Shown one piece after another: positions 46,348 through 52,178 of a stretch of 64,000 nt of DNA. The stretch is from Candidatus Bathyarchaeota archaeon (GTDB taxonomy: Archaea; Thermoproteota; Bathyarchaeia; Bathyarchaeales; Bathycorpusculaceae). A program made the position numbers and the translations under genes. The first letter of the stretch is position 1, and each line of letters starts with the position of its first letter. The notes under the pieces were generated by a model. That model did no database searches and had not been told where the DNA came from. It worked only from the letters and a program-made list of their open reading frames with translations. The stretch lies in the NCBI GenBank assembly GCA_963775685.1, contig CAVZJV010000005.1:32001-96000 (forward strand), in the 5' to 3' direction.

Positions 46348-47403
46348 TTGCGGTGTATTAAAACGGAAGAAGCTGATGTCTGGACTCCCATGGATGGAGA
46401 CACGTTTGTTACAAAAGACGGTTTTATCATGAACACGTTTGGGTACGAGCACCCTGACGACAGAGTTTTCGCGTTCCTCAAATACATCCCCGCTCAATAC
46501 AAGGGATTATTCGATGTTGAAATGCTCACTAGGACATGGCGGTTTGGCACAAACCCGCTTACTAGCCAACTGTTCCGTGCAGAAAAACTCTACACCGCCA
46601 AAAACTACCAAACCTTCATCGAAGCCTTCCGCAAAACCTTCCCAAGTTACCTCTATTTTGACCAGACACGCGGCAAAGAACTCATAACTGCCCCACTAGA
46701 CGCGATTGAACAGGTTTTCGTTCCCAAAGACCGCCTTGTTTGGCTCCAGACCCTTAAAAACCCAGATAGACTCCAAGCCATGTCACTTCGACTAATCGAT
46801 TTAATCTCCAAAGAGTCAGGTGTCCCCTGCAGCGACCTGGGCATCCACGGCTCCATTGCCCTGGAAATGCATGCACCAGAATCAGACATCGACTTTGTCG
46901 TCTATGGCTCAAACAACTTCCGAGTTGTCGAAGATGCCATACAACGGCTCGTAAACGAAAACAAGCTCACCTACATCGCGGGCAACCGCATTGAAGCCGC
47001 GCGAAAGTTCGTGGGCAAGTATCAGGGCAAAATCTGGATGTACAACGCAACCAAAAAACCCGAGGAAATCAAAACCCTTTATGGAGATTATACTTTCACC
47101 CCGCTAGCACAGCTCCGTTTTACAGCAACCGTTTGCGACGAAACAGAAACCATGTATCGACCAGCAATCTACCGAATTAGCAACTATCAACCCCAAGACC
47201 AACAAAGCGAAATCAGCCTCGAACAAACCCCAACCATTGTGACCTCAAACATAGGTTGCTACCGAAACGTCGCAAGAGCAGGACAGCAAATTAAAGTTGC
47301 AGGAACACTGGAGAAAGCCCAAAGCACAAAAGACGGCAGCGTCTTCTACCAAGCCGTCGTGGGAACAGCCACCTCGGAAGAAGAGTACATATGGCCAATC
47401 TAA
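46348..47403 (+). CDS. Pol-beta-superfamily nucleotidyltransferase (COG1665-like), paralog 1; start uncertain
   Basis: GYEHP..R..FLKY; GIHGS...[10 protein letters not shown]-terminal OB-like region ending VAGTLE...EEYI. Confidence 0.85.
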
Positions 47404-48464
47404 AACTGCGTGATCGCGATGCCATCCAAACCGCAGAAGGCATAATTTTCCGTGTCTTCGGTTATAGCCACCCACAAAACTCCTACATATGCGACGCGGA
47501 ATACGCCTCATCCAAAATTTTTCATTCAAAAGATCCACGTGCACCAAGAACAGGAAGAAGGGAACTCTTCTACAAATTCTACAACGACGAAGGCATGAAA
47601 CTCGTCACCGAAAAATACCCACATTACCTTGTTTTGCATGAGATGCTGGGCCTAAAAATCGTTGGAGTACCACGTAATTTAATTGCACAAGCTAGACGAC
47701 CGCAGCCTCGCCTACAAGAACTACTTAAAGCAGGACCAACGGATTCACTGCTGGCAGCGATGGAACATGTTCTGGATTTAGCAACTCAAAAATCAGGAGT
47801 AACCGCCAAAAGTTTCGGGGTCTTCGGCTCGATGCTACATGGATTCCACCACCCAAAGTTCTCTGACATAGATTTTACCATTTACGGTAAAACTGAAAAT
47901 GTCAAAATGTGCCAAACCATGGCAGAATTATACGCTGACAACAGTTCAGGTTTAAGAAACGAGTTTGAATCCAACGATGCGATGAAGGGCAAAGATTGGC
48001 GATTCAAAAATTTTGATGTTGAAGATTTTGTTTGGCATCAGCGTCGCAAAATGATTTATGGCCTATACGACGACACCAAACACAGCGGCAGGGTAATAAA
48101 AGCCGAATTTGAACCCGTGAAAGCTTGGAGTGAAATCAAAAACGAATACGACCCACAAGCACACATCATGCAGAAAGGCTGGGTTAAACTAAAAGCCCGC
48201 GTCACCAAGGACGATGAGGCACCTTTTATTCCATCAATCTATGGTATCGAGCCCATTGAAGTTTTGGCTGGTCCTAAGGAGGCGCTTAAAGTGATACGGA
48301 TTTTCTCATACATGGAAGAGTTCAGGCAGCAGACAAAAAAAGACGAAACCGTGATCGTTGAGGGCAACCTAGAAGAAGTACAGTTGCCAGTGGGAAGCTT
48401 TTGGCAGATAACGTTGACCTATTGCCCATGCTACTACGAACAGGTCCTTAAAGTGTTGCACTAA
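47391..48464 (+). CDS. Pol-beta-superfamily nucleotidyltransferase (COG1665-like), paralog 2
   Basis: RDRDAI...[36 protein letters not shown]. Confidence 0.88.
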
Positions 48465-49478
48465 TGCAGAAGCACCATGTAATCGGACGGCTTGCTACCA
48501 ATAATTAGGCGGTAATGTTCACGCCCGCTTTTCTTGGCGGTTACAAGCTCCACTTTTCCCTGTGCCTCAACTTTTTCGTCTACTACCGCTTGTTCACAGA
48601 ATCTACCGCGAAAAGAAACGATTTCCTCGATTGGCGCCAATTTGGGTCCTTCAACAGTTGCCACTTCATGGAACTTGTAAGAGCAGGGCGTGAATAGTGA
48701 ATCGGATGCATCAGCTATCTTGGCGGTTATTTTTGCGTAGCCACTATTGCTATAGCACACCTCGCCATACTGCTCGATAGTTTCAGCCCAATCTTTCACG
48801 AAGCGTATGAAGTAGTCCGTGCCCATGAACATGCCCTGGAAAGCTTTGCGGCTTTCGACTAAAACAAAGTCTTCGAAGCTCATCTGGGTATCCTTCGAAC
48901 GGAAATCGAAGAGAGTCTGGAGCTCCTCACTGGCTGTAGGGTTTGAATCCTGAATCCTCCTCTTTTAGCAGTTCCTTCAGGGCAACGTAAGCTTTGTGGC
49001 TGTTCTTTACGCCGTAAACCAGCGGGTCGATATCTGATTTCTCAGTTGTTAAACCCGCCATTATCGAACCAGAAATGCCAATCGCACTCCATGAGATCCC
49101 TGCTTTTTCTTTTAACGCTGTCGCAAGATGTAGCCCTTTGCTTTCTAAGGCATTGAGGGTTTTGGATTTGCGCAATTCTGCAAGTTTCTCGGTCGGCAGA
49201 TAATGTTCAGCTATTTGCTCTATGGGGACCTCACACATTGTCTCCCCAAACACAGGGTCAAAAATGATGAGGTCTGGATGGTTCTTCCGCAAGTACTCGA
49301 ATCGGTCGCTTAGGCTGTAAACTTTGCCATAAAGCCCATCTTTGCTCCTTCGTATGCCTTCAGGCGAAGGGATGAAACGGGGAAACGCGACGATCTTGTT
49401 TGGTGGATGAACCAGGCCTTTAACATCGAAAACTACATTGCTTTTGGTTTTGACCAGGTCGCCTTCGCGTGCAATCAT
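48461..49478 (-). CDS. Pol-beta-superfamily nucleotidyltransferase (COG1665-like), paralog 3; +1 frameshift near 48929
   Basis: EGD...VKGLVHPP; GISGS...SDIDPLVYG; repaired junction PYSQ-EELQTLFDFRSKDTQMSF; SFRGRFCEQA. Confidence 0.85.
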
Positions 49479-49549
49479 GTCAATCAGGGCTTGTAGTTTT
49501 CAAAACTTTAATAAACCTTTTTAAAACCACATAGAGTCGGAGCATTCCG

Positions 49550-50497: not shown

Positions 50498-50569
50498 CAT
50501 TCCATTAACTCTGACGGTACCTTTAATATTTAAAAACCCGCCTGTAAAAGTACTCTAAGGTGAACGTTT

Positions 50570-51535
50570 ATGGGTAAAGCACTTAGCATAAACCAAATGG
50601 CTTGGAATATAGCGCAAAAATTTATCGATAACCCTGAATTCTACTGTGTTACAGTTTCAAAATCGGCTGCTGGAGCCACAATCATCGATTCAGGCGTAAA
50701 TGCCCCAGGCGGCTTTCAAGCAGGGAAAAAACTAACTGAACTTTGTCTAGGCGGCGCCGGCAAAGCGCAATTGGGCTTCAAAACTTATGGCGACCTAACT
50801 TTCCCATCCATCACTGTTACCTCAGATCATCCAGCGATTGCCATGTTGGGCTCTCAGTTTGCAGGGTGGCGCATCAAAGAACCAGACGGCTCCATAGCCA
50901 TAGGTTCAGGTCCCATCCGCGCCCTTGCGCTTAAACCCAAAGACATTTTCGAAGAGATAGCCTACAAGGACATAAGCGACAAAGCTGTCATCACACTGGA
51001 AAGCAACGTTTTACCTTCTGACGCGCTCATAGAAAAAGTGACAACTACCAGCGGTGTCTCAGCGCAGAACCTGATTGCAGTTGTCGCTCCAACCGCAAGC
51101 ATCGCAGGCTTAACTCAAGTTGCGGGTAGAGTAGTTGAAGTGGGCATCCATAAACTCCGTACTCTTGGTTTAAGCTCAAAGGTTATTCGTTATGCGATGG
51201 GTTACTGTCCAATTCCACCCGTTGGCATGGACTTTGAGGTTGCTATGGCAAGAACCAACGACACCATACTCTATGGTGGAACAGTCTATCTCACAGTTGA
51301 CTTTGACGATGAAGTTGCGCTTCAAAACATTATCAACCAAGCACCATCAATGGCTTCCAAAGATTACGGCAAGCCGTTCCTGCAGATTTTCCGCGAAGCC
51401 GACAAAGACTTCTACAAAATCGACCATGGCTTATTCGCCCCCGCTTTTTTAATGATTAATAATGCAAAAACAGGCAAAACTTTCAAAGCGGGAAAAATAA
51501 ACCCTAAGGTACTGGCAGAATCCTTAGGATTCTAA
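50570..51535 (+). CDS. mch: Methenyltetrahydromethanopterin cyclohydrolase
   Basis: LGSQFAGW, GSGPIRALA, APTASIAG..QV..RVVE.GIHK, RTND.ILYGG and DFYKID..LFAPA. Confidence 0.96.
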   Translation: MGKALSINQMAWNIAQKFIDNPEFYCVTVSKSAAGATIIDSGVNAPGGFQAGKKLTELCLGGAGKAQLGFKTYGDLTFPSITVTSDHPAIAMLGSQFAGWRIKEPDGSIAIGSGPIRALALKPKDIFEEIAYKDISDKAVITLESNVLPSDALIEKVTTTSGVSAQNLIAVVAPTASIAGLTQVAGRVVEVGIHKLRTLGLSSKVIRYAMGYCPIPPVGMDFEVAMARTNDTILYGGTVYLTVDFDDEVALQNIINQAPSMASKDYGKPFLQIFREADKDFYKIDHGLFAPAFLMINNAKTGKTFKAGKINPKVLAESLGF

Positions 51536-51542
51536 ATTTTCT

Positions 51543-52178
51543 TCATTTTTGTGTTGGAACCGGACATTTTTCTACCTGTGGCATCGTTATATGCAGGACT
51601 TTTTGAACCCTGTGTGCAATCAACCAGCCTATCGGAATTGTATACAGCGCAAGAGTTGCGTTGAAGAAGGCGGCAAATGGTAGATATGCAATTGTTAATG
51701 CTTGGTCGAAGCCGAAGCTTTTGAAGCCTATTGGTGCTTCCTGAGGAAGCGCAAAGTATAGAACAAGTGACATGAATGCCACCCTGGTTAAGATCCCTAA
51801 GGTTGTTGCGACTGCCGCCCATTTGGCTTTAGAGAGTATATTCGTGTCTGGGTTTTTTGAGCAGAAAAATCTTTTGCCTAATGCTACCGCAGCAAAAATT
51901 CCAACTTGCATGGATAAGGTTGCGGCGAGGTTGTAGATTGGACCTGTAGGTAAGGCGCCGGGGAAGATTGCGAATAAGACAGCGGTATTCAAGAGTGATA
52001 CTCCTATTCCGGCTACTGGGCTGATTATTAGGAATGCGATTACTATGGGGATTTCCCATATTTGATAGATGAGCCCTTGCGCGAAGGGTGCAGCAAAGCT
52101 GATGTAGGTAAATGTTGGGTTTAGGGCTATTGCTAGGGCTGCGAAGACGATTGTTAGTGACAGCTTTTTAGTGTCCAA
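51543..52178 (-). CDS. ECF transporter S-component-like membrane protein
   Basis: FAALAIALNP (AxxxA helix 1), YQIWEIP and about 6 TM segments. Confidence 0.75.
   Translation of the reverse strand: MDTKKLSLTIVFAALAIALNPTFTYISFAAPFAQGLIYQIWEIPIVIAFLIISPVAGIGVSLLNTAVLFAIFPGALPTGPIYNLAATLSMQVGIFAAVALGKRFFCSKNPDTNILSKAKWAAVATTLGILTRVAFMSLVLYFALPQEAPIGFKSFGFDQALTIAYLPFAAFFNATLALYTIPIGWLIAHRVQKVLHITMPQVEKCPVPTQK

Follow-up and report, generated by a model that had tools for sequence, protein, structure and literature searches.

Pol-beta nucleotidyltransferases in the company of a CitG-like gene and mch: candidate partners in archaeal methanopterin-type cofactor synthesis

Why should three nucleotidyltransferase genes stand beside a CitG-like gene and a gene of tetrahydromethanopterin (H4MPT) metabolism in an archaeon? 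The question is raised by positions 46,348 to 52,178 of a 64,000-nucleotide stretch of DNA, called the window below, from a Candidatus Bathyarchaeota archaeon (assembly GCA_963775685.1, contig CAVZJV010000005.1, positions 32,001 to 96,000), where three paralogs of a Pol-beta nucleotidyltransferase (NTase) family, NT1, NT2 and NT3, adjoin a CitG-like gene and mch. In methanopterin the ribitol bears an alpha-ribofuranosyl-5-phosphate that is in turn esterified with 2-hydroxyglutarate, and to our knowledge the late enzymes that add the alpha-ribosyl-5-phosphate and the hydroxyglutarate have never been assigned. Neighbourhood, gene fusion and phyletic pattern connect the NTase family with the CitG-like gene as well as with pterin and H4MPT genes. 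That the NTases and the archaeal CitG-like enzyme work as partners to assemble the side chain of a methanopterin-type cofactor, one derived from beta-ribofuranosylaminobenzene 5'-phosphate (RFAP), is to our minds evenly poised between right and wrong. Taken by itself, the idea that the NTases act with the CitG-like enzyme in pterin-cofactor synthesis seems rather probable, and the assignment of the exact phosphodiester step to them is offered tentatively.

The genes of the locus, with positions counted from the first letter of the window, are as follows.

46393-47403, plus strand: NT1, Pol-beta nucleotidyltransferase paralog (open reading frame, PF01909, alignment; own clade of 17 rows)
47391-48464, plus strand: NT2, Pol-beta nucleotidyltransferase paralog of 357 amino acids (open reading frame, PF01909; clade of 21 rows with a long stem)
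48927-49478, minus strand: NT3, N-terminal part, with the beta-barrel and the NTase motif G-I-S-G-S ... S-D-I-D (open reading frame, sequence)
48461-48883/48928, minus strand: NT3, C-terminal part, the half with the OB (oligonucleotide/oligosaccharide-binding) fold, in another reading frame (open reading frame, alignment with orthologs)
49479-49549, no strand: divergent spacer of 71 bp between NT3 and the CitG-like gene (starts at 49478 and 49550)
49550-50497, plus strand: CitG-like gene, archaeal branch of the ATP:acceptor triphosphoribosyl-transferase family (PF01874, E 1.8e-67)
50570-51535, plus strand: mch, methenyl-tetrahydromethanopterin cyclohydrolase (PF02289, E 1.2e-112; TIGR03120)

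NT1 and NT2 stand in tandem with a 13-nt overlap (an alternative start of NT1 is possible at TTG 46294), NT3 as a whole (48461-49478, minus strand) is convergent with NT2, and 72 bp separate the CitG-like gene from mch, whose product passes the TIGR03120 equivalog with 365.1 bits against a cut-off of 228.8. The original prediction, made from the letters of the window, had described three divergent Pol-beta NTase paralogs, two in tandem and one convergent, and a 71-bp spacer between NT3 and a divergent citG followed by mch; the coordinates and the matches to PF01874 and TIGR03120 agree with that layout. All three NTase genes are present in it as described, the part that needs amending being NT3, which is not a single open reading frame (ORF), its frame being broken. 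In the 3.06-Mb genome NT1, NT2 and NT3 are the sole copies of their family, and the CitG-like gene is likewise a sole copy. The divergent NT3/citG arrangement is also present in 15 fetched loci, which form one clade in the tree.

CitG and MdcB use ATP and an acceptor hydroxyl to make an alpha-linked 5-triphosphoribosyl product plus adenine, and with CitX and MdcG a serine hydroxyl displaces pyrophosphate. In the mechanism proposed here, the CitG-like enzyme would take ATP and place a 5-triphospho-alpha-ribosyl group onto the ribitol hydroxyl of the pterin-aminophenyl-ribitol intermediate, with release of adenine. The NTase would then accept this triphosphate as its 'NTP', joining the alpha-phosphate to an acceptor hydroxyl with release of pyrophosphate, a step that would be the same chemistry as that of CitX and MdcG on a protein serine. 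The acceptor would be 2-hydroxyglutarate in classical methanopterin and other groups in other lineages, and an NTase active site would be suited to attack on an alpha-phosphate with pyrophosphate leaving. The model further predicts that methylotrophs lack the NTase, their cofactor having no phosphodiester tail. No paper tying CitG or the NTase to late methanopterin steps was found in the full-text literature, a search that left most subscription journals and supplements outside, and the accessible part of PMC8305020 does not mention CitG.

The phyletic pattern was drawn from a survey of NTase, CitG-like, MptG and Mch genes within Thermoproteota, with a phylum sample of 201 genomes and a class sample of 151 genomes of the window's class. 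Among the 201 genomes, the NTase profile matched 99, CitG 91, Mch 50 and the RFAP synthase MptG 72. NTase and CitG-like genes were found together in 89 genomes, with 10 carrying the NTase only, 2 CitG only and 100 neither. Set against MptG or Mch, the NTase was found with at least one of these pterin genes in 95 genomes and with neither in 4 of its 99; a further 5 genomes had pterin genes only and 97 had none of them. Of the 91 CitG-positive genomes, 89 carry MptG or Mch, and the large families without MptG and Mch are also without NTase and CitG (0/26, 0/17, 0/17 and 0/15). The original prediction had called for a phylogenetic profile of the NTase with citG, mch and mptG: within Thermoproteota this co-occurrence is near-complete, and the family does not behave as one that is common in genomes without H4MPT genes and unlinked to citG and mch. 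In the class sample, 117 of the 151 genomes carry the NTase and 108 carry CitG (PF01874).

Gene neighbourhoods point the same way. The distance between the two genes was taken in the 88 class genomes that have a place for CitG and at least one listed NTase place, with 150 of 342 NTase places listed. The nearest pair lies within 300 bp in 21 of these genomes, at 301-3000 bp in 17 and at 3-10 kb in 5, so that NTase and CitG lie within 3 kb of each other in at least 38 of the 88, a lower bound given the 150 listed places and the many fragmented genomes. Outside the class, same-strand NTase-CitG pairs a few tens of bases apart were found in the families f44, f50, f53 and f60. In f47, taken to be Sulfolobaceae from the names of similar proteins (Sulfolobus, Saccharolobus, Acidianus, Metallosphaera, Sulfurisphaera), both fetched genomes have the order DUF1464, NTase (297-298 amino acids), CitG and a phosphoesterase-like gene, and in both of them the NTase gene overlaps that of CitG. 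The synteny with citG and mch that had been suggested from the window alone extends to many families in which the genes are adjacent, and to clusters of ftr, mtd, fwd and mch in which the NTases are embedded.

Such clusters were examined at 80 mch-centred loci with flanks of at most 10 kb, many of them cut by contig ends. Titles name Bathyarchaeota, Bathyarchaeia or Bathycorpusculum for 76 of them and, for the rest, Nitrososphaerota, Thermoproteota or, in two cases, Acidoferrum/Acidiferrales bacteria; none of the 80 comes from a methanogen or methylotroph. CitG is present in 31 of these loci, the NTase in 27 and both in 26. A recurring order is three NTase genes, the third on the minus strand, then citG, a variable insert and mch. 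Proteins of the insert (L096, L126 and part of L107) carry Molydop_binding, Molybdopterin, Amidohydro_3 and GXGXG domains, a set and order that we take to be formylmethanofuran dehydrogenase fwdDBAC. In the f8 genome G002, which was scanned against Pfam, the order is NTase, NTase, ftr, NTase, mtd, fwd genes and mch, and G010 has the same ORF pattern. Because G002 has no CitG match at all, the association of the NTases with H4MPT enzymes persists even where CitG is missing.

A third line of evidence is a gene fusion. Among the best 120 relatives of the protein P0235, 17 protein clusters of 487-557 amino acids join an N-terminal HPPK domain (PF01288, E about 1e-38 to 1e-40) to a whole NT3-type NTase. 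HPPK is the pterin pyrophosphokinase, which readies the pterin for joining to the aryl moiety, and the fusion is therefore a link between the NTase family and pterin-cofactor synthesis that does not depend on gene order. The fusion was not found in 401 Thermoproteota genomes, where the listed matches cover query residues 144-504 at no more than 45% identity. HPPK itself occurs in 7 of the 151 class genomes, never within a 500-aa ORF, and a metagenome scan for the context of the fusion returned two stand-alone HPPK loci only.

The NTases themselves are a divergent family with a conserved catalytic centre. NT1, NT2 and NT3 share 19-28% pairwise identity in a MAFFT alignment, yet their layout is collinear, with a predicted architecture of a small N-terminal beta-barrel, an NTase core and a C-terminal OB fold. 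All of their PF01909 scores are marginal against the cut-off of 21 bits, with 22.2 for NT1, 22.1 for NT2 and 19.5, below the cut-off, for the N-terminal part of NT3. The motif h-G-[GS] ... D-x-[DE] is present in all three window copies, and none of the 133 aligned members departs from G143, G146, S147, D159 or D161 (NT2 numbering); in the N-terminal G-x-x-H-P motif, 124 of the 133 retain H27 and 126 retain P28. The shared G-x-x-H-P and G-x-x-G-S ... S-D-x-D motifs named in the original prediction are therefore conserved across the 133-member alignment, and since the catalytic G, G-S and D-x-D are kept in every member, every paralog looks catalytically active. No dedicated Pfam or NCBIfam model exists for the family, which is new to curated databases and mostly archaeal. 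It is of modest size, given that 598 relatives at E <= 0.001, and 325 at E <= 1e-10, were found in 1.84 billion representative proteins. Genomes carry two to six paralogs, tandem pairs recur even in distant lineages, and proteins 75-86% identical to NT2 are found in Bathyarchaeota records.

Several observations weigh against a role of the NTases beside the CitG-like enzyme in side-chain synthesis. The case for the NTase role is drawn wholly from gene context. The counts in the 201 genomes are not corrected for shared ancestry, and the genomes with neither gene lie mostly in the large families f32, f36, f38 and f41; the counts rest on a handful of deep splits and describe a pattern, not a probability. 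The MptG matches (TIGR00144) exceed the curated cut-off in 55 of the 72 genomes and fall under it in 17. Further, the link is not obligate, since the class sample has both genes in 99 genomes, the NTase only in 18, CitG only in 9 and neither in 25, and the genomes with NTase and without CitG include some that are 96-100% complete (G020, G026, G002, G023). G002 is without any CitG match despite its NTases in an ftr/mtd/fwd/mch cluster. The nearest listed pair is more than 10 kb apart in 8 of the 88 class genomes and on different contigs in 37, and NTase and CitG are not neighbours in f33, f40, f42, f45, f55 and f59. Outside Bathyarchaeia, some CitG-like genes adjoin genes related to coenzyme A (CoA) or citrate. 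The closest solved folds of the NTase are RNA- or DNA-acting NTases and single-strand-binding OB folds, at middling Z scores of 7-7.7. Finally, kinship with the second transferases of the known systems was sought and is not supported: no match of the NTase to CitX (PF03802), or of NT1-NT3 to MdcG (PF10620), was found at E <= 0.01, and hhalign of the 95-sequence NTase profile against E. coli CitX gave a probability of 0.56%. Judged from these comparisons, the NTase is an analogue of CitX and not a relative. Of the original proposal that CitG and the NTases together serve methanopterin-type synthesis, the genomic association has held and the kinship of the NTases to CitX and MdcG has not.

The alternative that best withstands the evidence has the NTases help to make or maintain pterin or one-carbon cofactors, but at another step or by other chemistry, such as activation of a building block (as CofC does in F420 synthesis), other tail units or salvage. 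We regard it as unlikely, though the least so of the alternatives. The context evidence associates the family with pterin and H4MPT genes but does not single out one reaction, and the 18 class genomes with an NTase and no CitG, the cluster of G002 and the spread of two to six paralogs per genome fit such a role. So does the f3 family, in which one genome has the NTase fused to an M20 peptidase domain in a 769-aa ORF (L189:1850-4159, G067) and a sister genome has the M20 gene adjoining the NTase, with a LysE-type exporter next door (L187:2518-4991, G026); neither G067 nor G026 has a CitG match. However, the tight and often overlapping pairing with the CitG-like gene is most simply explained by consecutive steps on one intermediate, and the product of the CitG-like enzyme would bear exactly the triphosphate that an NTase needs.

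A second alternative is a canonical prosthetic-group system, in which the CitG-like enzyme makes triphosphoribosyl-dephospho-CoA and the NTase loads it onto a serine of an unrecognised carrier protein. The CitG-like protein matches positions 2-283 of the 284 in PF01874, and hhalign of the archaeal CitG-like profile against E. coli CitG gave a probability of 99% over 250 columns with motifs shared, a full-length alignment that speaks for this alternative. Neighbours of some CitG-like genes do so as well: in f59 a CitE-like (HpcH/HpaI) lyase gene and a CoA-ligase-like gene face the CitG-like gene in convergent orientation (L048:10655-12465), in f42 the CitG-like gene is divergent from citrate synthase (L042:8590-9774), and elsewhere it adjoins genes for a CoA-transferase (L043), a CoA-binding protein (L046) and CoaBC (L041). 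Against this stand the failed CitG/MdcB equivalogs TIGR03125, TIGR03132 and NF002315, with 37.1, 40.0 and 48.1 bits against cut-offs of 272.3, 282.35 and 280 and alignments confined to the C-terminal ~100 residues. Neither the citrate-lyase acyl carrier protein (ACP, PF06857) nor CitX (PF03802) nor MdcG (PF10620) has a match in the genome, which is 96.9% complete, and Pfam scans of the called ORFs bear out the earlier statement that the window is free of citrate-lyase and malonate-decarboxylase genes. Among 14 control genomes, CitG matches were found in E. coli, M. jannaschii, H. volcanii, S. acidocaldarius and M. acetivorans; the control archaea with CitG are exactly those with MptG and DUF447, and ACP and CitX occur in E. 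coli only. The presence of MptG or Mch in nearly all CitG-positive Thermoproteota, the HPPK fusions and the embedding in one-carbon clusters point to a pterin and not to CoA. We therefore consider a prosthetic-group system improbable.

A third alternative holds that the NTases are nucleic-acid enzymes for template-independent tailing or repair of RNA or DNA 3' ends, and that their neighbourhood is meaningless. It draws on the AlphaFold2 model of NT2, built from a 95-sequence alignment with a predicted local distance difference test (pLDDT) score of 96.5 and a predicted template modelling (pTM) score of 0.92. Residues 1-100 of the model form a beta-rich N-terminal domain bearing G-x-x-H-P, which when folded alone (pLDDT 91.5) has a weak likeness to Sm, KOW and SH3-like barrels, with a best Z of 4.1. 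The NTase core, residues 113-245, matches Trf4 (Z 7.7, root-mean-square deviation (rmsd) 4.1, 97 residues aligned), TUT7 (7.7), TdT (7.5), pol beta and MenT1, the core matches ranging over Z 7.0-7.7, rmsd 2.5-4.1 and 84-101 residues. The OB-like tail noticed in the original prediction is borne out by residues 260-357, a C-terminal OB fold that aligns to those of SSB, RPA and MCM at Z 7.1-7.5. Many arginines and lysines are conserved in the NT3 clade and would fit polyanionic substrates, a trait that does not discriminate a cofactor from a nucleic acid. However, Z below 8 may reflect a common arrangement, and no significant sequence match exists in the PDB, where phmmer gave nothing up to E 1 and a profile search reached E 0.17 at best; nor did Foldseek return anything from the PDB at E <= 0.001, and no solved structure there spans the whole chain. 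Adjacency to CitG, fusion to HPPK and the phyletic pattern are not expected of a general RNA or DNA enzyme, and the NTase was not found in the large Thermoproteota families without MptG and Mch. This alternative too is improbable. Very improbable is the last one, that the NTases are accessory or selfish genes of a minimal-NTase toxin-antitoxin or defence type clustered here by chance: it can cite sub-threshold matches to the MntA antitoxin model (E 0.009-0.11) and the MenT toxin among the fold matches, but it is already refuted by the conservation pattern, the proteins being 300-360 amino acids long with two extra conserved domains, keeping their 75-86% identity across Bathyarchaeia and occupying fixed positions in metabolic clusters in a family present in 117 of 151 class genomes.

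To return to the NTases as partners of the CitG-like enzyme, the presence of several paralogs calls for comment. A FastTree phylogeny of 133 rows, with local support values only and a midpoint root, was built after rows below 270 amino acids, rows above 480 amino acids and duplicates had been dropped, two HPPK fusions being included. In it the NT3 clade holds every CitG-adjacent Bathyarchaeia copy, both included HPPK fusions and one Hodarchaeales protein, and the NT1 and NT2 clades hold Bathyarchaeia loci only. By its placement in the tree, NT3-type is the widespread, CitG-adjacent form; NT1 and NT2 may use other acceptors or be subunits of a hetero-oligomer. Sulfolobus acidocaldarius, which is genetically tractable, has the NTase together with CitG-like and MptG matches, and DUF1464, the gene upstream of the NTase in f47, also has a match there. 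The Atlas clusters nearest to its NTase (score 0.98) are PF01909 proteins of 307-311 amino acids among which Methanobacteriota is the most frequent phylum, a lead not based on an alignment.

The NT3 form raises a point of assembly quality, as the window copy is split by one inserted base relative to two orthologs in a DNA alignment, near 48920-48930. Its N-terminal part stops at an in-frame TGA at 48927 that the frameshift creates, and it matches intact full-length proteins at 38-47% identity; in same-genus genomes the NT3 ortholog is an intact ORF of 338-371 amino acids. The frameshift is probably an assembly error and not a real break, because the same assembly splits the essential pheT and truncates an epimerase gene. 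Public reads trace to three soil metagenomes with a small share each, none of which spans 48892-49035, and no RNA data set is listed. The pheT gene, for the phenylalanyl-tRNA synthetase beta chain, is found as two overlapping pieces in different frames, 55450-56760 with the B5 domain and 56606-57160 with the C-terminal domain. The ORF of the NAD-dependent epimerase (3752-4357) begins at profile position 101 of 240, and an ATP-binding cassette (ABC) ATPase (59059-59754) is overlapped by a family-less 141-aa ORF in the region 58737-59754; both may be further frameshifts.

Downstream of mch, the locus ends with one more gene.

51543-52178, minus strand: membrane protein of 211 amino acids, convergent with mch (no family assigned)

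The original prediction had named this protein a substrate-binding (S) component of an energy-coupling factor (ECF) transporter, a label that is not borne out by a family match, as it has none in Pfam or NCBIfam, PF12822 and PF07155 included. Three of its positional equivalents were scanned: L126:11021-11620 has a weak match to ECF_trnsprt (PF12822, 5.7e-07), and L096:11028-11600 and L092:10972-11562 have no family match. BLASTP between the window protein and the L126 gene gave E 0.29. Genes for ECF-type S components (PF07155, 2e-07 to 2e-10) were seen at another place, between NT3 and citG, in four Bathyarchaeia loci.

L116:1141-2139: ECF-type S component between NT3 and citG (PF07155)
L120:3421-4383: ECF-type S component between NT3 and citG (PF07155)
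L126:1566-2318: ECF-type S component between NT3 and citG (PF07155)
L131:3465-4226: ECF-type S component between NT3 and citG (PF07155)

Such a component could belong to a transporter for a cofactor precursor.

Other observations touch the pterin genes and the NTase loci. DUF447 is a candidate for another pterin-pathway gene, because it lies directly beside mptG in the window's genome on a contig other than the window's (G000:C14:1119582-1121122; also L005 and L176) and is the next gene after the CitG-like one in an f45 genome (L046:9843-11494), and because the four control archaea in which it occurs are those that have MptG and CitG. In the families f39 and f44, Mch is present in 8/8 and 4/4 genomes and the RFAP synthase TIGR00144 in 0/8 and 0/4 (E <= 1e-10), which suggests a very divergent or non-orthologous first pathway enzyme, or uptake of the cofactor. 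At L050, L051, L052 and L056 (f40, f55, f45), an NTase tandem lies beside a protein of 519-703 amino acids resembling APH or Kdo kinases and beside PmbA/TldD, far from the CitG-like gene. Two contigs with bacterial titles, L123 (Candidatus Acidiferrales) and L125 (Candidatus Acidoferrum sp.), carry a Bathyarchaeia-like mch, with three NTase genes and citG upstream of it in L123; bacterial labels are also attached to the NTase relatives P0029 (Binatia) and P0417 (Acidobacteria). The L123 and L125 contigs are probably archaeal and mis-binned into bacterial metagenome-assembled genomes. Elsewhere in the window, 8369-20685 holds five glycosyltransferase genes (GT2, GT4) followed by large secreted or lectin-domain proteins of 1171 and 576 amino acids, and looks like a surface-glycan locus unrelated to the NTase finding.

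A guess from a single window has in this way become a concrete candidate pair of enzymes with context from several hundred genomes. If the proposal is true, it would fill a gap in the biosynthesis of the one-carbon carrier of methanogenesis, anaerobic methane oxidation and the archaeal Wood-Ljungdahl pathway, extend chemistry of the CitG/CitX type from protein prosthetic groups to a free cofactor, and provide a marker of the pterin that a given uncultured archaeon makes. It is possible, though we hold it doubtful in this full form, that the family is the missing enzyme that closes methanopterin-type side chains, that its paralogs reflect unseen tail diversity in Bathyarchaeia, Sulfolobales, Asgard archaea and others, and that the HPPK fusions combine the activating and the tail-forming enzyme in one polypeptide.

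How does the proposed pair compare with known systems? With the Pol-beta superfamily at large (PF01909; terminal uridylyltransferases, Trf4/PAP, pol X, MNT/MenT) the NTases share the G-S ... D-x-D motif, and their core aligns to these enzymes at Z 7.0-7.7, a level that may reflect a common arrangement. They differ from the superfamily in their N-terminal barrel with G-x-x-H-P, in their C-terminal OB fold and in a genomic context that is metabolic. The nearest structure on the CitG side is PDB 3h9p, a 'putative triphosphoribosyl-dephospho-CoA synthase' that matches the archaeal CitG-like profile with E 8.4e-45; it is a structure without an assigned substrate and is silent on the NTase.

In methylotrophs, Chistoserdova and colleagues are said to have reported in 2005 that orf7 mutants lack dephospho-H4MPT. 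Judging from the accessible parts of the sources, Orf7 resembles the present case in that a CitG-like gene adjoins mch, as in the window. Methylotrophs keep mch-orf5-orf7 clusters, according to the available part of PMC3615186, and Methylomonas has consecutive genes for Mch, an alpha-L-glutamate ligase and a 'triphosphoribosyl-dephospho-CoA synthase', according to that of PMC11533326. The difference lies in the partner, which in the mch-orf5-orf7 clusters is an ATP-grasp gene (orf5), the accessible parts describing no NTase partner.

The closest parallel is provided by CitG/CitX and MdcB/MdcG, where a CitG-family gene is likewise paired with a gene for a second transferase, often overlapping or divergent, and the citX-citG order of E. 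coli parallels the NTase-citG order of the f47 genomes. These systems attach 2'-(5''-phosphoribosyl)-3'-dephospho-CoA to the ACP of citrate lyase or malonate decarboxylase. The genome of the window differs in having no ACP or lyase genes, its NTases are unrelated to CitX and MdcG as far as profiles can tell, and the predicted acceptor is a small molecule and not a protein. What the two would share is their logic, in which a triphosphoribosyl donor is made from ATP and the hydroxyl of an acceptor then displaces pyrophosphate.

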